The translations under genes were made by a program, and so were the position numbers. DNA of 64,000 nt from positions 3,034 through 67,033 of the forward strand of contig JBBAEK010000005.1 of assembly GCA_041655935.1 (NCBI GenBank), given 5' to 3'. The first letter of the stretch is position 1. Every line of letters starts with the position of its first letter. Below the pieces are notes generated by a model that was given only the letters and a program-made list of their open reading frames with translations, had not been told where the DNA came from and did not search any database. This DNA is from Eubacteriales bacterium (GTDB lineage: Bacteria > Bacillota > Clostridia > Oscillospirales > CAG-272). Below, in pieces: positions 2,425-62,962 of this stretch.

Positions 2425-3336
2425 TTGAAAAAAGACAAAAGATCAATCATCGGATGGATCATGGTATCCATCACCACAGTATTCTCCTGCGTTTGGGCTT
2501 ATTGGGGAACCATAGAGAACTTTCATGAGGGGTGGTACTCCACGTCCCTCGGGGAGAATCTGTTCATGTTGTTCTTTCAGTATTTGCTGTTCACCATCAT
2601 CTTTGTAGCGCTGGCTGTCACGACGCTGCGGTGGAAGAAAATAGGGATGCTGTTGCATGGGATCGTGGCTGTGGGGAGTGTGTGGTTTTTTTCCGGCGCC
2701 AGCTTCAGCGTGATCGGCCTCATGGTGGCCATTCCCATCATTGCGCTGGGTATAGGCTATTATTATGGAGAGCCAAAGCCAAAGAAATGGGCTTACAGAC
2801 TGCTTGTGACCGTCCCGTTGCTCATGATTTTGGCGATTGCCATCCCACAAGGGATCAGGGTTTCCCAAAGGGTCAATGATCATGACGACGGCATGAGAAC
2901 GGTACCGGGCAATGGTGTCACATTGGTCTGGGCACCCAGAGGGCCCGGTTGGCCTGACCGGGGGACATCATGGGAGGAGGCGCAGAGAATCTGTCAATAC
3001 CTATCGGAAGACGGCACGGTCTTGATGGAAGAAGCGCAAAATATCTGGCGACTGCCTACGGTGGATGAGGCAGTTCGTTCCATGATGCTCCACGGACAAA
3101 ACGCGGGCGGCACATGGGACGCCCTCGAGGGGAAAGCGGTGTACCTACGAACTCCGGACAAAGAAACCCCTCTGTGGGACCCCCATTCCAAAGTGATTTA
3201 CTACTGGACCGCAGAAACCTCCCCGCAAGATGAGCGCAGGGCGTACATCATTGTGTATCACGGCGGTGTATATGGAAAAATGAAAACTGACGGGCAAGAC
3301 TACTTAAGCTTCCGCGCCGTGAAAGATGCGGAGTAG
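2425..3336 (+). CDS. polytopic membrane protein with C-terminal DUF1566 (Lcl C-terminal-like) domain
   Basis: TTG start with GGAGG 9 nt upstream. Several hydrophobic helices are followed by ...SWEEAQRICQ...IWRLPTVDEA..., typical of DUF1566. Confidence 0.65.
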   Translation: MKKDKRSIIGWIMVSITTVFSCVWAYWGTIENFHEGWYSTSLGENLFMLFFQYLLFTIIFVALAVTTLRWKKIGMLLHGIVAVGSVWFFSGASFSVIGLMVAIPIIALGIGYYYGEPKPKKWAYRLLVTVPLLMILAIAIPQGIRVSQRVNDHDDGMRTVPGNGVTLVWAPRGPGWPDRGTSWEEAQRICQYLSEDGTVLMEEAQNIWRLPTVDEAVRSMMLHGQNAGGTWDALEGKAVYLRTPDKETPLWDPHSKVIYYWTAETSPQDERRAYIIVYHGGVYGKMKTDGQDYLSFRAVKDAE

Positions 3337-3399: not shown

Positions 3400-6264
3400 T
3401 CAGAACTCGAAAGTGTTGAGCTCGTCATACACCTCATGGTATCTGATTCTTTTCACAGTCGCCCAGAGCGCTTCAAAATCCGACAGGTATTCGCCCCTGT
3501 ACAGGGACAGCAGCTCCTTGGCCGTCTCTCTGGTTTTGTGAAGTTTGAACGCTTCATACGCCTTTTCAAAAAGCTCGGCATCACATTCGATTTTCTCGCG
3601 ACAGAGAAAATAACGGTTCCCCCGACAGACGACCGATGCTTCTATCCCTGCGGCTTTCAGGTCATTCTTTAAGTGTTGCAGATTCACCGAAATCAGGTTC
3701 TTGATATTGCCGGACTCGGAGTCCCACCATATCGCGTTATGTATCTGTTCTTTGGTCGCCCCCTGTTCACCCACGTCGAGCAGAAAGGCCAACAGCTCGC
3801 GTTCCTTTTTTGTCCTGAATTTGACCATACTTTTTCTTTCTCTGTCCTGATACACAGTGAAGGCTCCCAGCGTTTCAACATAGACCTTTCTGGGCCGGTA
3901 TCCGACAAAGGCCATCATCTGCGCGGTGAACTCGGGCTCTATGCCATGCTCATACGCCCACTCCAGAATCGGGTCGTAGGCCTTCCGCATTTTAAAATAC
4001 TCATACAGCCCGTATTCCCGGCAGAGCCTCAGGTACCGCGCGGTCAGCATTGTTGCCTTTTCCTGCTCCTTTGCCGCTATTGCCGCTCGGGCAAGCACTC
4101 CGTACGCCAGGGAGGCATGCAGCATCAGTCCGGCGCTCTCCCCGGTCTCAATGCACTGTCTCGCGCACCAAACGGCATTCGGATAATCGGATACCGCGCC
4201 ATAATACCCCATCAGCCGGGCAAACACAATGCTTTTCAAGTAATCGCCCGCGCCGTCCAGGTTGTCCATGATTTCGCGGACCATGTCTTCCTTCGGGTCA
4301 CTCGTGAACATCAGGCTATAGGTCAGGTGTTGCATTGTTGCCCAATGCATCTGGAAACGGGTTTTCCGGTACAGCGGCGCATATTCGTCTGCCAGGGCAA
4401 AATACTTGATAGCGGTTTCATAGGAGGCGTTCTGCCCGTTCATTCTGTCAGTCAAGGCATTCTGATAGTGTATCTCGGCCGCCAGCAGGTAGCCTGCCCA
4501 CAGCTCCTCATAGTTTCCCGTATTCCTGAGCCGCGAAAGCTCCGCTGACAGCACGGAGAGGGAGCGGCTCCGCTCGCCTAACAGCTGATAGGCCTTCGCG
4601 ACATAAATAGCGGTACTGTGTACTCCTAAAAAGCTTTGCTCCTCCTCCGGGATTTCAAAGGACTTTTCGTAGTACTGCACCGACTCCTTCATATTGCCTT
4701 TGAAAAAGCATACGGCGCACAGATACCGTTCAAACCAACGCTTCACCTTCAGGTTGCCGGCGTTGGCACAGCGCCCGATCATCTGCCGCGCGAGCGTCTC
4801 CGCTTCATGGATCAGCGGAATCCAGCACAGGTTATACAGCTTTTCGATGCCCACCGAATAGACCGACTCGTCGGCCGAATCGCCTAACTTTTCCATCAGC
4901 TCGTCCAACAGCCGGTTTGATGCCTCAAATGAATCAAAATTGCGCAGGACCCTTGCCTGATGGATCATTGCCTCTACATACAGTGGCCGGTCATGCTCGT
5001 TCATTAGGGGGATAGCCGCCGCCAGGCAGGCTTTAGCCCCGACGAAATTCCCGACAAACGACAGGTAAGCCCCCTTTGCCACCAGCATCGGAGGGCTTGC
5101 TTTGACCGCCTTCTCGGGCAGCGCCCGGAACCAACCCCCGAGCTCGCTGTAATGGCCGGTTTTGATATACTCCCGGTAGCATGTGAGGATGATACTTTCC
5201 AGCAGCTCAAAATCCTTCGCGGCGATGGCATAACGGGCAGCCCTTGAATATTGCCGATGCTGAAAATAGTACCGCGCGGCACCCCGCCAAAGCAGGGCAG
5301 TCCGGTGCCGGTCCGCCATTTCCGACAGACTGCTTTTGAAAAGCGCGTGGTAGCGATAACACCCGTCGCTCGTTTTCACAGTGAACATATTTCTCGCCAC
5401 CAGGCTTTCCAGCATCAGCCGTGTGTTTTTTTTGCCCAAAACCTCATCCAGCATCCCGGCTTCCAGCTCATCAAAGCAGGCGGATGCTTTCAGAAAATCC
5501 ACCATATCGGGGTTCAGATTGGCGATACATTCCCGGAAAAGGTAGGTGTACAAAGTTTCCCTGCCGTAGGCGGAGAGGTGGTCAATGGGTATGCCGTTCT
5601 CCAAAAGCACCCGGAAAAACCGTATGGCCAGGGGCCACCCCTCGCTGGCATCGTACAGGGCGGGCTCGTCAAAGCCTACAATATCGGTGACTTCCTCCCG
5701 TGTAAAGGCCAGCTCTTTTTGGGTCAGCTCTGTCAGGTCCCCCTTGATTTTAAACGACACGAATTCCTGCGGGAGAGCCTCCCGGCTGCCAAAGCAGAAG
5801 CGGACATTTTTCGGGGGATATTTGATCAGACACTCTATCAGTTTTTTGATATCCCGGCTTTCGATCGAGTGCAGGTCGTCCAGAACGAGGAGAAAATCGC
5901 AAGGGATTTTTTCCATGCCGCAGGCAAGCAAGCCCGCCAGGATGGCAATGAAATTCTTTTTTTCATGAAAAGGCATATATTCCGATGCCGAAAAGTCGAA
6001 CTCCGGGAAGGTGTACCGGATGGACTGACCGAGCGCGAACACAAAGGAGAACACATCCTCCTCTTCGCTCAAGGTCAACCAGGCGGCCTTGGAGGCTCTT
6101 TGGGCTACCTGTGAGAGCAGAGTGGTCTTTCCGTACCCCGCGCCCGCATGGATATAGACCAGCCTGGCGGGACTGCTCATGAGGACATGGATTAAATGGC
6201 TGCGTATGATTTCTCCTGCGGCGGCTCCCGGTGCCGACAGCCTTACACTCGGAATATCGGACAT
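3400..6264 (-). CDS. STAND-type transcriptional regulator: N-terminal P-loop NTPase, helical/TPR-like middle, C-terminal winged-helix plus BTAD
   Basis: Walker A GAGYGKTTLL and Walker B LLVLDDLH. C-terminus: VETLGAFTV...TKKERELLAFLL...ELFEKAYE...YRGEYL (OmpR/SARP-type DNA-binding plus BTAD). An extended -10 (TGGTATACT) inside the longer ORF argues for the ATG at 6264 rather than the TTG at 6351. Confidence 0.8.
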   Translation of the reverse strand: MSDIPSVRLSAPGAAAGEIIRSHLIHVLMSSPARLVYIHAGAGYGKTTLLSQVAQRASKAAWLTLSEEEDVFSFVFALGQSIRYTFPEFDFSASEYMPFHEKKNFIAILAGLLACGMEKIPCDFLLVLDDLHSIESRDIKKLIECLIKYPPKNVRFCFGSREALPQEFVSFKIKGDLTELTQKELAFTREEVTDIVGFDEPALYDASEGWPLAIRFFRVLLENGIPIDHLSAYGRETLYTYLFRECIANLNPDMVDFLKASACFDELEAGMLDEVLGKKNTRLMLESLVARNMFTVKTSDGCYRYHALFKSSLSEMADRHRTALLWRGAARYYFQHRQYSRAARYAIAAKDFELLESIILTCYREYIKTGHYSELGGWFRALPEKAVKASPPMLVAKGAYLSFVGNFVGAKACLAAAIPLMNEHDRPLYVEAMIHQARVLRNFDSFEASNRLLDELMEKLGDSADESVYSVGIEKLYNLCWIPLIHEAETLARQMIGRCANAGNLKVKRWFERYLCAVCFFKGNMKESVQYYEKSFEIPEEEQSFLGVHSTAIYVAKAYQLLGERSRSLSVLSAELSRLRNTGNYEELWAGYLLAAEIHYQNALTDRMNGQNASYETAIKYFALADEYAPLYRKTRFQMHWATMQHLTYSLMFTSDPKEDMVREIMDNLDGAGDYLKSIVFARLMGYYGAVSDYPNAVWCARQCIETGESAGLMLHASLAYGVLARAAIAAKEQEKATMLTARYLRLCREYGLYEYFKMRKAYDPILEWAYEHGIEPEFTAQMMAFVGYRPRKVYVETLGAFTVYQDRERKSMVKFRTKKERELLAFLLDVGEQGATKEQIHNAIWWDSESGNIKNLISVNLQHLKNDLKAAGIEASVVCRGNRYFLCREKIECDAELFEKAYEAFKLHKTRETAKELLSLYRGEYLSDFEALWATVKRIRYHEVYDELNTFEF

Positions 6265-58679: not shown

Positions 58680-59783
58680 TCACTTGGGATTTTTCAGGTC
58701 TTCCTTTAGCCCATCAAGCAATTTTTCAATGAACTGATGGTCTACCGTATACCTGTATTTGTTGTCTGTTCGGTCCAGTTTCACGATCTTAGCCTGTAAA
58801 AGATTGTTGACATGATAGGATATTGTGGCGCCGGACACACCGGTGGCGAGGGCTATTTCCTTCATCGAGCTGACCCCCGAGGCGATCAGCCGCAACACAT
58901 CGTATCTGGTCTTGTCTCCCAAATTTTTAAATACTCTGACCCGCTCATTGACCTTATTTTCATTTTCTTCTTTGGTTCTTTTGAAGCCTTCTTCCACCCG
59001 CAGGCCCCAGGCAATGAAAGGAGACGGGCCCGCATCCAAAATGGAAATGGCAAACTGATGCATGGCAGAAATGAAAAGGCGGTTTTTTTCATGGCTGATG
59101 ATGTTCGCATCCAGTATGGAACAGGTGAGCTCCTCTAATCCTTTTGCACCGTTTTGGTTCAGAAACGCTTCCAGATACCGTCCGTATCTGCTGACTTCCC
59201 GCTCAAAAGGCTCATAGACCTCTGCAAATATCGGGAGCATGCTCCTCATCAGCTCCACATACATTTTCATATATTTGACGGGCTCCTCAACAATTAAAAA
59301 CAAATTCCATTTGGACGCCGCCTCAGTCGGCAACTCCTTGATGACGGCGAGCAGCTCCCCTTTGTTTTCGGTCAGGGACTCTGCCTTCCGCATGATGGCG
59401 TCCGAATACTCCGGCGTGTTTTCATGAATTGACAGGAGGGAGTACGCAATACTTCTGTGGATCTCCTTGCCACTCAACTCCAGCAGCCTATCGAGGTATT
59501 GTTTTTCGGTTTGATATCCGACAATGGTGTGAAGTTTGGATATCAGACCGATCAAGTCATAGTCCCCCAGGAAATTTTCCATATAAAAAAGGTCAATCTC
59601 TTTTTGATACGGTTTTAATTTCGTTTCCGTTCTGCTGACAAACTCCATATAATCGGTAAAAGCGGGCACCTTGCGGTCTTCCTCTTCCTTGGACTCTTCG
59701 AAATGTCGCCTCGCATACACCATGGCTGGAAACTCTAAAAAGTCATACAGTCTGCTTTCTGTCGGATAGAATTTAAATTTCAT
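58680..59783 (-). CDS. ArsR/SmtB-type winged-helix regulator with ~280-aa N-terminal extension
   Basis: C-terminus LGDKTRYDVLRLIASGVSSMKEIALATGVSGATISYHVNNLLQAKIV (ArsR HTH). The N-terminal domain is unrecognised. The gene is AT-rich relative to its neighbours. Confidence 0.7.
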   Translation of the reverse strand: MKFKFYPTESRLYDFLEFPAMVYARRHFEESKEEEDRKVPAFTDYMEFVSRTETKLKPYQKEIDLFYMENFLGDYDLIGLISKLHTIVGYQTEKQYLDRLLELSGKEIHRSIAYSLLSIHENTPEYSDAIMRKAESLTENKGELLAVIKELPTEAASKWNLFLIVEEPVKYMKMYVELMRSMLPIFAEVYEPFEREVSRYGRYLEAFLNQNGAKGLEELTCSILDANIISHEKNRLFISAMHQFAISILDAGPSPFIAWGLRVEEGFKRTKEENENKVNERVRVFKNLGDKTRYDVLRLIASGVSSMKEIALATGVSGATISYHVNNLLQAKIVKLDRTDNKYRYTVDHQFIEKLLDGLKEDLKNPK

Positions 59784-61350: not shown

Positions 61351-61993
61351 GTGAGATATCCGGCACTGCCGGATGTGAAACCAATGGCTTTGCCATTGGT
61401 GACATCGAAAACGCAGGCGTTTCCGGTGAAATAAAATCCACCCACCCGCCGTCGAGGCGGATTTCACCCAACGAAGTTGGATTTCACCGCGCAGCGATTT
61501 CACCCACCCGATAGGGTGGATTTAGTTGAAACAAGCACTTGCTTTTTTGCGGGAAAAGGAAAACGAGTGAAATATCCGGCTTGCGCCGGATGTGAAATAA
61601 TTCGCTTCGCGAATTGTGAAATATTGCTCCTTCGTCGCAATGTGAAATTAAATCCACCCACCCGCCGTCGAGGCGGATTTCACCCAACGAAGTTGGATTT
61701 CACCGCGCAGCGATTTCACCCACCCGATAGGGTGGATTTAGTTGAAACAAGCACTTGCTTTTTTGCGGGAAAAGGAAAACGAGTGAAATATCCGGCTTGC
61801 GCCGGATGTGAAATAATTCGCTTCGCGAATTGTGAAATATTGCTCCTTCGTCGCAATGTGAAATTAAATCCACCCACCGCCGCAGCGATTTCACTGCGCG
61901 TCAGCGCAATTTCACACGCCGCAGGCGTATTTCACCCACCCGATAGGGTGGATTTAGTTGAAACAAGCACTTGCTTTCGCAAGTGCTTGTTTC
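61351..61993. repeat. 216-bp-period tandem array of heptamer-spaced GC hairpins (three ~175-nt modules)
   Basis: Copies at 61426-61641 and 61642-61857 differ at one base. Diverged partial copies lie at 61351-61425 and 61858-61993. See findings. Confidence 0.9.
61960..61993 (-). terminator. perfect 15-bp-stem hairpin directly after tRNA-Tyr (no U-tract on the minus strand)
   Basis: GAAACAAGCACTTGC-tttc-GCAAGTGCTTGTTTC. It abuts the tRNA CCA end at 61994. Confidence 0.45.
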
Positions 61994-62078
61994 TGGTGGG
62001 GGAAGGTGGATTCGGACCACCGAAGTCAGTGACAACAGATTTACAGTCTGCCCCCTTTGGCCGCTCGGGAATTCCCCC
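61994..62078 (-). tRNA. tRNA-Tyr (GUA), class II with long variable arm, CCA encoded
   Basis: Reverse complement: GGGGGAA-UU-CCCGAGCGGCCAAAGGG-G-GCAGA-CUGUAAA-UCUGU-variable arm-GGUGG-UCCGAAU-CCACC-UUCCCCC-ACCA. Confidence 0.85.
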
Positions 62079-62081
62079 CTA

Positions 62082-62156
62082 TGGAGCTGGTGATCGGAGT
62101 CGAACCAACAACCTGCTGATTACAAATCAGCTGCTCTGCCATTGAGCCACACCAGC
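62082..62156 (-). tRNA. tRNA-Thr (UGU), CCA encoded
   Basis: Reverse complement: GCUGGUG-UG-GCUC-AAUGGCA-GAGC-A-GCUGA-UUUGUAA-UCAGC-AGGUU-GUUGG-UUCGACU-CCGAU-CACCAGC-UCCA. Confidence 0.85.
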
Positions 62157-62191: not shown

Positions 62192-62220
62192 ATTATAGCA
62201 TAGCCCAAAGGGTTTGTCAA
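62192..62220 (-). promoter_or_regulatory. consensus promoter of the tRNA operon (TTGACA-17-TATAAT)
   Basis: The reverse complement of 62215-62220 is TTGACA, and of 62192-62197 is TATAAT, with a 17-nt spacer. It lies ~35 nt upstream of tRNA-Thr. Confidence 0.7.
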
Positions 62221-62434
62221 CAGCTTTTTCACTTTTTCGTTGAAAACCACGAAAGAGAAAGGGCGGCAAACATTGCCTCCCGCAGGCCCATGATGACCTC
62301 TTTGCTCAAACGGTCCCCCCGGCACCGCCCCCCGCCCGCACCGTCAAAAATTCGCCTTTTGTTGACAAGTGGGAGGGCTTTGGGCTATAATGGGGATACA
62401 GGCCGACGCCTGCAAAAAAGTGCTGGAGAGCGGT

Positions 62435-62962
62435 ATGAAAAAAACTGTGTTGGTCATCAACGGTGCCGGGGGTGTGGGCAAAGATACCCTGTGCCACTTT
62501 GCCGCCCGCCACTTTGCCGTGCGCAACATTTCTTCCATCACGCCCATCAAGAAGCTGGCGAGCCAGTGCGGCTGGAACGGGGAGAAAACCGATGCCGCCC
62601 GCAAGTTTTTGTCCGATCTCAAAAAAGCCGCCATTGAGTATAATGACTATCCCTTACAGTGGGTCATGAACCGGTACCGTGCTTTTATGGCGTCCGACGA
62701 CCTCATTTTATTCGTCCACATCCGCGAACCGGAGGAAATCGAAAAGTTTGTCCGCGCCACGGGCGGCCATGCCCGCACCCTCTTGGTGCAGGGGAACCAC
62801 GCCAAGGCACGGCAGGCGGCGTTCGGCAACCCGTCCGACGACCGGGTGGAGGACTATCCGTATGACTACTACTATGAAAACAACACCCCTCTGCACGAGG
62901 CCGAGCCGCACTTTGTCCGTTTCATCAAGGACATCCTCCGAAATGAGGCCGACAGACCATAG
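62435..62962 (+). CDS. P-loop NTPase / nucleotide-kinase-like protein
   Basis: MKKTVLVINGAGGVGKDTL Walker A. ~175 aa. GGAGAG RBS before the ATG at 62435. Confidence 0.55.
   Translation: MKKTVLVINGAGGVGKDTLCHFAARHFAVRNISSITPIKKLASQCGWNGEKTDAARKFLSDLKKAAIEYNDYPLQWVMNRYRAFMASDDLILFVHIREPEEIEKFVRATGGHARTLLVQGNHAKARQAAFGNPSDDRVEDYPYDYYYENNTPLHEAEPHFVRFIKDILRNEADRP

Follow-up and report, generated by a model that had tools for sequence, protein, structure and literature searches.

Three tandem copies of a composite Gut-1 element behind a tRNA operon, and the association of Gut-1 with PF05635 genes in gut Clostridia

The window, meaning the whole 64,000-nucleotide stretch of DNA analyzed (contig JBBAEK010000005.1 of an Eubacteriales bacterium), carries on its minus strand a tRNA-Thr/tRNA-Tyr operon followed by an array of short hairpins. 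The array is composed of three tandem copies, with a 216-bp period, of a composite Gut-1 element, and the copy most distant from the tRNA genes shows decay of its outer half. Read along the tRNA strand (the minus strand here), the unit comprises, in this order, a terminator-type hairpin termed T1, the sequence CAAC, four short hairpins with GUGAAAU linkers (the proximal comb), and three hairpins with AUUUCAC linkers (the distal comb). A long-range helix of 11 bp joins the 5' end of the proximal comb to the inter-comb junction and competes with the first local hairpin. The features of the locus are as follows:

62192..62220, minus strand: sigma-70-type consensus promoter of the tRNA-Thr/tRNA-Tyr operon, TTGACA-17-TATAAT with TG; likely the source of transcripts entering the array
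62082..62156, minus strand: tRNA-Thr (UGU)
61994..62078, minus strand: tRNA-Tyr (GUA)
61960..61993: T1, a 15-bp hairpin, GAAACAAGCACTTGC-tttc-GCAAGTGCTTGTTTC
61780..61960, minus strand: module 3, adjoining the tRNA, a complete composite Gut-1 element
61883-61960, minus strand: module 3 proximal comb, Rfam match of 85 bits
61946..61956, minus strand: module 3 long-range helix, 5' arm, sense UAAAUCCACCC, which the competing local hairpin CCACCC-uauc-GGGUGG shares as its own 5' arm
61865..61875, minus strand: module 3 long-range helix, 3' arm, sense GGGUGGAUUUA, immediately ahead of the first distal-comb AUUUCAC
61781-61869: module 3 distal comb, Rfam match on the plus strand, 58.6 bits
61745..61779, minus strand: junction of modules 3 and 2, with one T1 arm only, then TTTTTTGCGGGAAAAGGAAAACGA
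61564..61744, minus strand: module 2, a complete composite element
61672-61744, minus strand: module 2 proximal comb, 73.8 bits
61730-61740 and 61649-61659: module 2 long-range helix arms
61565-61653: module 2 distal comb, plus-strand match, 58.6 bits
61529..61563, minus strand: junction of modules 2 and 1, same sequence as the junction of modules 3 and 2
61456..61528, minus strand: module 1 proximal comb, Rfam match of 73.8 bits
61514-61524 and 61433-61443: module 1 long-range helix arms
61351..61432, minus strand: module 1 distal comb, hairpins intact, stems different, three of four heptamers mutated

Exact GTGAAAT and ATTTCAC heptamers occur 24 times in the window against 8.1 expected, a count that none of 100 shuffles reaches, and 18 of the 24 are concentrated in 61426-61935. 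The variants GTGAGAT, GTGAAAC, and GTGACAT were read directly on the plus strand at 61351, 61375, and 61399, and Tandem Repeats Finder reports a repeat of period 216 with 2.6 copies and 94% matches at 61426-61977. The heptamer positions listed in the first-pass annotation were confirmed on the sequence, and the hairpins that it quoted, the flip in polarity, and the 15-bp hairpin beside tRNA-Tyr were all found. It had also claimed a one-base difference between the central 216-bp copies: 61426-61641 and 61642-61857 are displayed as 100% identical, and the sole mismatch is an A/T at 61433/61649, in the outermost pair of the module 1 long-range helix. What had been read as a degenerate heptamer, ATTTAG, is an arm of this conserved helix (GGGTGGATTTA / TAAATCCACCC). 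The junction of modules 3 and 2, in which the T1 arm GAAACAAGCACTTGC is kept on the plus strand at 61744-61758, is the scar of the 216-bp duplication. The array is non-coding, as first proposed, and the 222-aa open reading frame at 61477-62145 crosses both tRNA genes.

The same annotation had matched the array to no RNA family and had named a confident match to a known one, in advance, as evidence against novelty. Such a match was found in Rfam: cmscan returned five matches to Gut-1 (RF01706), with 85, 73.8, and 73.8 bits on the minus strand and 58.6 and 58.6 bits on the plus strand, all above the curated gathering score of 50 bits, and the alignments display all three stems and four linkers. 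The Gut-1 lead-in CAaUGAAAU is replaced in the window by CAACUAAAU, and the distal comb at 61351-61432 gave no Rfam match at E <= 10. Gut-1 consists of three hairpins with GUGAAAU (or GUGAUAU) linkers and covarying stems; the published model comprises one 77-nt comb, and the text reports just its occurrence in human-gut metagenomes and gives no function (Weinberg et al. 2010, Genome Biol 11:R31, PMC2864571). A literature search on Gut-1, RF01706, GUGAAAU, and PF05635 retrieved nothing functional, and within the literature searched Gut-1 was found described in Weinberg et al. 2010 alone. The window array shares with Gut-1 the linkers, the covarying stems, and an origin in gut Clostridia or metagenomes. 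The compensatory stem changes that mark Gut-1 are present as well, with stems more than 95% Watson-Crick, many sequences per position, and changes on both sides in 18 of 25 pairs according to RNAalifold. The flanks of the published seed alignment already contain the upstream tRNA, the terminator, and the inverted second comb; beyond the published motif are the composite of approximately 180 nt, the long-range helix, the fixed post-tRNA place, the tandem amplification, and a link to PF05635 genes (detailed below).

Other repeat classes fit less well. In CRISPR arrays, direct repeats of approximately 23 to 50 nt alternate with unique spacers about as long, and cas genes usually accompany them. 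The array had been judged not to be one, and this stands: its repeat is 7 nt, its "spacers" are 9- to 20-nt palindromes, the polarity flips inside the unit, and Cas domains are absent from the flanking genes examined. An integron attC site is a single imperfect palindrome of 55 to 140 nt with R''/L''-L'/R' boxes and a cassette ORF alongside; it was rejected because the array has seven or eight short, perfect hairpins that are independent of each other, keeps its linkers invariant, and contains neither boxes nor cassette ORFs. The inverted combs, the 216-bp tandem copies, and the place after tRNA or other genes are traits of the REP/BIME (REPIN) type, with its short palindromes between genes where transcription units have their 3' ends, its inverted pairs, its tandem clusters, and its many copies per genome. 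In proteobacterial REPs, however, the palindrome sequence is conserved and a GTAG foot is recognized by the RAYT transposase, whereas the stems of the array vary freely, differing at each module position and between modules, the 7-nt linker is the invariant part, the orientation to the upstream gene is fixed, and no RAYT gene lies nearby.

The same arrangement recurs in loci of metagenome-assembled genomes of gut Clostridia, in scans of which the largest matched at least 120 stretches each, and more than 200 related loci from gut Clostridia reveal the real unit to be the 168- to 192-nt composite. Whole-module MAFFT alignment misaligns the proximal comb, so parsing was anchor based, and the long-range helix was analyzed on a gap-free mini-alignment. 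Of the 78 distinct strict modules (168 to 192 nt), 40 are located 29 to 46 nt behind a tRNA gene encoded on their own strand, and no other arrangement of module and tRNA gene was seen. This matches the earlier view of the array as lying 3' of the tRNA operon with a set orientation. Most T1 hairpins follow "...CCA." The composite is also found after RNase P RNA or protein genes in gut Clostridia, always the same way round; one module (L107) begins 17 nt past RNase P RNA. Several copies occur per genome behind different tRNAs, and a single genome carries several old paralogous module classes instead of one homogeneous family, with position-specific hairpin identities kept across genomes (A, ~ATTCGGC; B, ~AATTTCC; C, ~ATCGAAC..GAGAT). 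A recurrent post-module sequence containing GAGTTCGAA was considered as a tRNA 3' fragment and rejected, as it does not match the upstream tRNA. A search with the neighboring 197-aa protein gave relatives at most 62% identical with no tRNA or module nearby, and thus no usable synteny.

Compensatory stem substitutions across more than 100 related loci bear out the earlier proposal of selection on structure. The complementarity of GUGAAAU and AUUUCAC likewise survives changes of the heptamer: GTGATAT always occurs with ATATCAC, and ATGAAAT with ATTTCAT. Arrays of six heptamers are of the GTGAAAT/ATTTCAC type in 162 cases, a count that each module can enter once per strand, and of the GTGATAT/ATATCAC type in 26, never mixed, and G.U-type intermediates (GTGAAAT with ATTTCAT) occur in two loci (L098 and L110). 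Single combs that lack a complementary partner retain the same invariant heptamer, so that pairing by itself fails to account for its conservation. A GTGAAAT scan of IMG/VR yielded 10 true loci, in contrast to GTGACAT and GTGAGAT, for which no hairpin arrays were found among 120 + 120 IMG/VR stretches. The resemblance of the heptamer to anticodon loops (UGAAA, Phe; UGAUA, Ile) is therefore left as a curiosity.

The best-supported tertiary contact is the covarying 11-bp long-range helix, which the ladder of paired heptamers first proposed does not include. At least nine contiguous pairs of this helix are present in 76 of the 78 modules, in 11 sequence variants; 96.2% of cells are paired, 7 of the 11 pairs show changes on both sides, and double-change cells number 53 against 17.3 in shuffles (0 of 500), while slid controls collapse. 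RNAalifold predicts the helix independently. Compared with shuffles, one window module folds with z values of −5.57 and −5.59 on the two strands, and none of 200 shuffles is as good. The combs also display a strand asymmetry, as each seems to fold best on a different strand, the one running 5' to 3' outward. On the tRNA strand, A.C exceeds G.U in the proximal-comb hairpins (21 versus 7), and loops of the C-GNA-G/GNRA kind appear in the AUUUCAC reading only. In contrast, G.U and tandem G.A pairs in T1, the long-range helix, and the distal comb favor the tRNA strand. These base-pair asymmetries suggest that some combs may fold better on the strand opposite to the Gut-1 annotation.

In relatives, T1 has a symmetric A>=4/T>=4 form in 49 of 76 cases and is without a U-tract in modules behind protein genes. 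T1 of the window corresponds by homology to the symmetric A6-stem-T6 bidirectional terminator seen in relatives, but both of its A/T runs are broken by a compensatory C/G pair (GAAACAAG...CTTGTTTC) and the terminator scan makes no call, so that termination at this hairpin is probably weakened. Terminators on the tRNA strand follow 12 modules. No sigma-70-type promoters were detected inside modules on either strand, and antisense promoters beyond the distal comb are not clearly enriched (12 versus 7.3 expected); this gives no support to separate small-RNA genes in convergent or divergent orientation.

PF05635 is a very common protein family with no assigned function. To our knowledge, it has been encountered only as the accessory protein Avd of diversity-generating retroelements (DGRs) and as an ORF within 23S rRNA intervening sequences, and we know of no demonstration of sequence-specific nucleic-acid binding by its members. 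A gene for a 115-aa PF05635 protein follows about 14 of the 78 modules (~18%), and conversely 63 of 66 metagenomic genes of this subfamily (~95%) have a heptamer comb 23 to 90 nt upstream; the cassette is defined here by a PF05635 gene on the tRNA strand within ~90 nt downstream of the distal comb. Genes of the subfamily and their combs sit behind at least 25 different tRNA anticodons, and 12 metagenomic loci present the same Thr(UGU)-Tyr(GUA) tRNA pair as the window, followed by module and PF05635 gene. Heptamer variant and protein change together, with ATTTCAC modules accompanying one PF05635 subfamily and ATATCAC modules another, 55% identical to the first; this co-variation comes from few independent cases of the T family (four loci). 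PF05635 genes that lack a module fall in subfamilies different from these two. Taken together, these comparisons indicate that the composite is genetically tied to a small Avd-like protein of the four-helix-bundle type. Motif search and tblastn retrieved no PF05635 gene or remnant in the 64-kb window, and the array is an amplified "solo" form.

From the observed family membership, architecture, covariation, and genomic associations, we infer a mode of transcription, a functional strand, a protein partner, and a role for the module. With a probability of roughly 50%, the module is a structured RNA produced by read-through of the tRNA operon, with the heptamers as putative PF05635 recognition sites. 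The active form would be a single-stranded RNA that arises when transcription from the strong tRNA promoter continues past a T1 whose U-tract is broken in the window. Its stable hairpins would keep the invariant heptamers single stranded, forming a multivalent platform for the cognate PF05635 protein, and alternative pairings (the long-range helix versus the local hairpin, possibly also heptamer with heptamer) would set which of the sites are exposed. A module beside a PF05635 gene would serve as the leader or operator of that gene, and solo modules would bind the protein in trans. In favor of transcription along the tRNA strand are PF05635 start codons just 15 to 34 nt past the last heptamer in several loci, a distance that fits a ribosome-binding site only, the terminators on this strand after 12 modules, the missing U-tract of T1 behind protein genes, the G.U and tandem G.A pairs, and the tRNA promoter of the window. 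The indirect evidence for an expressed Gut-1 RNA on the annotated strand is mixed. Against a read-through RNA, T1 is in most relatives a good intrinsic terminator ahead of the module, the A.C excess on the tRNA strand and the opposed strand preferences of the combs are awkward for one transcript, and in many loci a promoter separates the module from the PF05635 gene, leaving the module outside that mRNA. Against the partner itself, the gene accompanies few modules, the window lacks even a remnant, and the co-variation draws on four loci.

A bolder form of this reading is put forward tentatively. Gut-1 composite modules may be the cognate nucleic-acid partner of a pentamer-type, Avd-like four-helix-bundle protein of PF05635, as a binding platform or as a processing or mobility signal, in a previously unrecognized cassette of gut Clostridia that colonizes genes for stable RNAs (tRNA, RNase P RNA) at their 3' ends. 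The cassette would be a counterpart of the 23S rRNA intervening sequences, and the window would hold an amplified gene-less array acting in trans or a non-autonomous derivative. The intervening sequences of Leptospira and Coxiella encode a PF05635 protein, lie inside rRNA, and are excised by RNase III. Both systems place a PF05635 gene beside a structured element on a stable-RNA gene, whereas the Gut-1 module lies outside the mature tRNA, is a comb with invariant linkers, and is common in gene-less copies. Among multivalent protein-binding RNAs, CsrB and RsmZ serve CsrA, and the GAG/UAG repeats of the trp leader serve the TRAP ring. They too repeat a short conserved single-stranded motif between or on hairpins, but the Gut-1 motif is 7 nt, stands strictly between hairpins, has a complementary anti-motif comb built in, and has a candidate partner only. 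The tRNA 3'-ETS(leuZ) sponge is a functional RNA from a tRNA-operon trailer, as is proposed for the read-through RNA here. The repeats of type III toxin-antitoxin systems (ToxI type) are identical units of 34 to 45 nt that are processed by the toxin. The module resembles ToxI/CptI in its tandem structured repeats, leaky terminator, and small downstream protein gene, and differs in that the heptamer alone repeats and that the window has no such downstream gene; we know of no toxin in PF05635.

A possible but rather doubtful alternative is that the element acts as DNA, being a dispersed or mobile repeat of the REP/BIME or MITE kind. The complete cassette, which colonizes stable-RNA gene 3' ends, would consist of the module and the PF05635 gene, solo modules would be its gene-less derivatives, the hairpins would act as single-stranded DNA or cruciforms, and the heptamers would be read on both strands. 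This agrees with the asymmetry by which nearly all genes have a module and few modules have a gene, with the several copies per genome, and with the recurrent tandem amplification (the window, L180, L176, L132, and L136), and at least 10 contig ends of the JAZTZP01 genome fall inside such repeats. Copies of T1 from different loci and genomes are almost the same, so T1 travels with the module. The loops are exactly the set C-GAA-G/C-GCA-G/C-GGA-G/C-GTA-G, which Hirao and Yoshizawa reportedly found to form very stable DNA mini-hairpins; a dyad that folds on the outward strands is natural for DNA and awkward for a single transcript; and heptamer variants complementary between combs are expected if one factor reads both strands. 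However, apart from the tandem duplications no flanking direct repeats and no att-like or target duplications longer than 8 nt were detected beyond chance, and in related loci no transposase (including the IS200/IS605 type), integrase, or HUH gene recurs beside modules. The position-specific hairpin identities and the old paralogous classes within one genome also argue against this alternative, the orientation to the upstream gene is absolute (40 of 40), and on the tRNA strand T1 and the long-range helix have an excess of G.U pairs, as would suit an RNA.

It is unlikely, and somewhat more so, that GUGAAAU pairs with AUUUCAC within one transcript to form stacked 7-bp helices and serial four-way junctions, as the first-pass annotation proposed. 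Minimum-free-energy folds of the window modules do use heptamer:heptamer helices on either strand, and the complementarity preserved in every heptamer variant seen, including ATGAAAT with ATTTCAT and the G.U-type intermediates, is what such a ladder predicts. The covarying long-range helix, however, encloses the proximal linkers and is therefore incompatible with a fully nested ladder, and the compensatory change UAAAU...AUUUA in the window fits this helix and not an outer rung. In the nested register, ATGAAAT/ATTTCAT gives an A.C pair, the crossing "same-order" register alone being fully Watson-Crick. Pairing as the sole constraint would not require identical rung sequences, partnerless combs keep the heptamer, and the three mutated heptamers of the outermost comb in the window have no compensation.

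Quite improbable is a passive bidirectional insulator, REP-like and without a specific partner, in which hairpins each with AUUU, together with T1, would block read-through both ways and protect both the precursor tRNA and the mRNA downstream against exonucleases. The modules do separate a strong transcription unit for stable RNA from the promoter or gene that comes next. In 15 of 77 loci a sigma-70-type promoter directly adjoins the last heptamer, and promoters of this type are enriched downstream (20 versus 7.8 expected). From either entry side, the second comb is met as hairpin plus AUUUCAC with the better-folding stems, which would explain the strand bias of the dyad, and the terminator scan flags several hairpins in the window. 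Nevertheless, three U residues are a poor terminator tail, and insulation leaves unexplained the invariant heptamer, with two or three allowed variants in hundreds of genomes, the covarying long-range helix that competes with a local hairpin, and the tight coupling to a single protein family whose variants match.

Finally, a double-stranded iteron or operator array for the ArsR-type regulator, or a private, recent, functionless duplication, can be given hardly any weight. In its favor, an HTH_20/ArsR-like protein is encoded 1.6 kb from the array (58683-59783), and the near identity of the internal 216-bp copies indicates that this duplication is recent. The comparative data already contradict it: the regulator gene is not adjacent, as had been stated, but separated from the array by the gene downstream of the array, that of an MFS transporter, such a neighbor does not recur in ~80 related loci, where the recurrent one is the PF05635 gene, and homologous modules with compensatory changes in hundreds of genomes show the unit to be old and constrained.

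Gut-1 has been an orphan motif since 2010, and the comparative data turn it into a testable unit of approximately 180 nt with a conformational choice, a fixed place behind tRNA genes, and a candidate protein partner whose subfamily tracks the heptamer. For annotation, Gut-1 arrays are a hazard, as they break assemblies and yield spurious ORFs such as the 222-aa one here. Should the element act as DNA, it would add a new class to the intergenic repeats of abundant gut Firmicutes; a specific nucleic-acid partner, if confirmed, would be the first handle on what the members of PF05635 outside DGRs do.

The array at 61351-61993 is near certain to belong to the Gut-1 family. The Rfam model RF01706 (Gut-1) matches the window five times, always above its gathering score of 50 bits, and no further match was found in the whole 64 kb. 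The first-pass annotation had assigned the array to no known RNA family; a confident match to one overturns that claim. As the array belongs to a catalogued family, it is not in itself a new finding. The relevant features are as follows:

61456-61528, minus strand, Gut-1 match, 73.8 bits
61565-61653, plus strand, Gut-1 match, 58.6 bits
61672-61744, minus strand, Gut-1 match, 73.8 bits
61781-61869, plus strand, Gut-1 match, 58.6 bits
61883-61960, minus strand, Gut-1 match, 85 bits
61994-62078, minus strand, tRNA-Tyr
62082-62156, minus strand, tRNA-Thr
62220-62192, minus strand, perfect tRNA operon promoter (TTGACA-17-TATAAT) preceding both tRNA genes

Gut-1 was described as a probable non-coding RNA from 43 examples, found only in human-gut metagenomes (Weinberg et al. 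2010, PMC2864571). In the literature searched, this is the sole paper naming the motif; it is silent on function, and no function was found elsewhere. The published seed alignment already includes members with GUGAUAU linkers, and its unmodelled flanks contain a tRNA upstream, as well as a terminator and a second, inverted comb, that is, a row of short hairpins joined by heptamers.

On re-reading of the window, the earlier description of the array sequence proved accurate. Exact GTGAAAT/ATTTCAC heptamers occur 24 times (8.1 expected), 18 of them clustered in 61426-61935, and Tandem Repeats Finder places 2.6 copies of a 216-bp repeat at 61426-61977. The internal copies do differ at a single base, 61433/61649. 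Compared with shuffles, one module folds better by about 5.6 standard deviations, whichever strand is taken. The 222-amino-acid open reading frame (ORF) is spurious, as had been argued, because it crosses both tRNA genes; the array is non-coding. The downstream neighbors encode an MFS transporter and an HTH_20/ArsR-like protein, and no gene or remnant of PF05635, a family of small Avd-like proteins, was found across the window. The array is therefore a solo form, here amplified three-fold. Separately, a 197-amino-acid ORF (62369-62959, plus strand) with a P-loop-like GxGGVGKD motif and no Pfam match is preceded by a perfect TTGACA-18-TATAAT promoter (62362-62391); its relatives, 45 to 62% identical, occur only in Clostridia metagenome-assembled genomes (MAGs).

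The Rfam model covers only part of the real Gut-1 unit. When one genome per species was scanned for the pattern, hundreds of matches appeared, and nearly all true ones among the matches listed belong to MAGs of gut Clostridia (Oscillospiraceae, Acutalibacteraceae, Christensenellaceae and "Eubacteriales"). In the recurrent arrangement, a stretch of about 155 bp holds four GTGAAAT and then three or four ATTTCAC; a strict pattern retrieved 78 distinct modules of 168 to 192 nt among the matches listed. On the sense (tRNA) strand, the unit begins with a terminator-type hairpin (T1) and reads T1 - CAAC - GAAAU-X-loop-X' - GUGAAAU - F - GUGAAAU - E - GUGAAAU - D, then, after a short spacer, X'-AUUUC - AUUUCAC - C - AUUUCAC - B - AUUUCAC - A - AUUUCAC. 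The 6-nt segment X is thus present three times (X, X' and distal X'), so that the 5' GAAAU-X can pair locally or with the distal X'-AUUUC. Of the 78 modules, 76 have at least nine contiguous pairs in the latter, long-range helix, and X takes 11 different sequences. Over 24 distinct arm pairs, pairing is kept in 96.2% of cells, 7 of 11 pairs show changes on both sides, and double-change cells number 53 versus 17.3 in shuffles (0/500). Slid-register controls all collapse, and RNAalifold, given a plain MAFFT alignment, predicts the helix independently and without author input. What had been taken for a degenerate ATTTAG in the window is one arm of this helix, whose local variant, UAAAU-CCACCC ... 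GGGUGG-AUUUA, is a compensatory change.

The modules occupy a fixed position. A tRNA gene ends 29 to 46 nt upstream on the same strand in 40 of the 78, with 15 different amino acid specificities, and none of the 78 lies in any other geometry to a tRNA gene. T1 fills the gap, usually immediately 3' of "...CCA," and in 49 of 76 cases its stem is flanked symmetrically by an A-run and a T-run. One module begins 17 nt past an RNase P RNA gene, and some lie 3' of protein genes, where T1 has no U-tract. T1 is part of the cassette, as its sequences recur from locus to locus and from genome to genome. In the window T1 (61960-61993), a compensatory C/G pair breaks both runs (GAAACAAG...CTTGTTTC): relative to the A6/T6 consensus of relatives (e.g., L094, with an identical stem), A became C and T became G, with the base pair kept. 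As both runs are interrupted, termination should be weakened, and the change should leave a plain hairpin where relatives have a bidirectional terminator.

The genomic context suggests PF05635 as a candidate protein partner of the modules. On the sense strand, a TTGAAA-17-TATAAT promoter abuts the last heptamer in 15 of 77 modules, and a terminator lies downstream in 12 of 77. Downstream of about 14 of 78 modules is a 115-amino-acid ORF starting MAESKLRELS..., assigned by Pfam to PF05635 ("23S rRNA-intervening sequence protein," 78 bits), a family to which Avd, the DGR accessory protein, is related; the closest solved structure is 2RLD, an entry with five chains. In several loci the start codon follows the last heptamer by only 15 to 34 nt, which accommodates a ribosome-binding site and nothing more; there the module must be transcribed with the gene. 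The reverse test is stronger than this forward count. Among 66 metagenomic loci encoding close relatives of this protein with enough upstream sequence, 63 have a heptamer comb 23 to 90 nt upstream of the gene, 46 a complete module and 42 a same-strand tRNA; at least 25 anticodons are represented, and the window's own pair, Thr(UGU)-Tyr(GUA), appears in 12 loci. Heptamer allele and PF05635 subfamily vary in step: the MAESKLRELS subfamily lies downstream of ATTTCAC modules (at least 17 loci), another that is 55% identical (MSNSILRDKA...) downstream of ATATCAC modules, and a third, more divergent PF05635 sequence downstream of one more ATATCAC module (L466). Where PF05635 genes have no module, they belong to yet other subfamilies.

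Related elements were observed elsewhere. Single combs without the inverted partner (L005, L006, L014, L033, L046, L070, L074, L085, L093, L103 and L106) are a distinct architectural class inside the Rfam family; they finish in a variant linker (GTTAAGG/GTGAAGG/GTTGAGG, some Shine-Dalgarno-like AAGGAGG), followed by an extra hairpin and A/T-rich sequence. Upstream of the Gut-1 combs of L006 (about 3580-3780, minus-strand reading), a second comb type has short hairpins with GNA/GNRA loops on (A/G)CATCAT linkers in place of GTGAAAT, which points to a broader design in these genomes, with an invariant linker between variable hairpins. A conserved sequence of about 60 nt (TAAAAYCGGTTTGAGTTCGAAWCCTTATT...AAAAATATCTTTTT), including a T-loop-like GAGTTCGAA, lies directly 3' of the distal comb in L027, L116, L169, L213 and L143, also L037 and L094, and does not match the upstream tRNA. 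In an Akkermansia MAG (L004, Verrucomicrobia), GTGAAAT x3 arrays at 2314-2386, 2753-2825 and 3250-3301, spaced about 440 to 500 bp, are candidate combs by heptamer pattern only, as are those of Akkermansia loci L008, L052 and L067; a PF05635 gene of another subfamily (ORF at 6161) lies 3 kb from the L004 arrays. Genuine composite modules also occur on IMG/VR contigs classed as viral (L299, L302, L307, L308, L311, L322, L330 and L334), four with a PF05635 gene about 25 nt downstream; these modules may lie in phage DNA or in host flanks of tRNA-adjoining prophages.

The element may act as an RNA of the tRNA strand: the fixed geometry behind tRNA genes, the leader-type junctions to PF05635 genes, the downstream sense terminators, the T1 without U-tract behind protein genes, and the G.U excess and tandem G.A pairs on the sense strand all favor it. 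The sense-strand excess is 8 versus 0 in T1, 9 versus 4 in the long-range helix and 22 versus 7 in the distal comb, plus 65 tandem G.A pairs there, while the proximal hairpins (A.C 21, G.U 7 on the tRNA strand) count against it, all these counts being small and phylogenetically dependent. Also against it, C-GNA-G/GNRA loops appear only in the AUUUCAC reading, so every comb, single ones included, seems to fold best opposite to Rfam's orientation; no internal or divergent promoters account for this bias. The bias keeps alive the main rival to a read-through RNA, a single-stranded-DNA element or mobile repeat or cassette. No flanking direct repeats were found around modules. Tandem module duplication is seen again in other genomes, and some genomes have five or more copies or assemblies broken at modules. 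Genome JAZTZP01 (L061, L064, L065, L076, L100, L101, L105 and L120) has at least 10 contig ends inside Gut-1-type repeats, which are flanked by a long hairpin (AAATTATAGTTTA...TAAACTATAATTT) and form three near-identical families behind unrelated genes; these look like a dispersed, possibly mobile, repeat.

The first-pass annotation was partly right in its structural intuition. It proposed that, if GUGAAAU linkers pair in cis with AUUUCAC linkers, each module would fold as a ladder of four-way junctions. Comb-to-comb complementarity is kept through every heptamer allele: six-heptamer arrays number 162 for GTGAAAT/ATTTCAC and 26 for GTGATAT/ATATCAC (any module countable on both strands), with no mixed-allele array among them, and the ATGAAAT lineage carries ATTTCAT. 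GTGAAAT accompanies ATTTCAT in two loci, and minimum-free-energy folds use heptamer-heptamer helices. However, a nested ladder cannot form together with the long-range helix, the ATGAAAT lineage is fully Watson-Crick only in a crossing register, partnerless single combs retain the identical heptamer, and pairing alone does not require identical sequence in all rungs. A single trans-acting factor defining the heptamer allele fits the data equally well, and cis pairing is possible as an additional conformation, not as the sole explanation.

In the read-through reading, transcription from the tRNA operon would extend into the module and give an RNA platform that would present the heptamers to the PF05635 protein. 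We give this preferred reading even odds (about 0.5), with near certainty on the identity and perhaps a one-in-three chance on the mechanism. Four things appear to be new when set against the literature searched: the composite architecture of the unit, the covarying long-range helix within it, the constant location behind tRNA genes, and the reciprocal, allele-matched association of modules with PF05635 genes.
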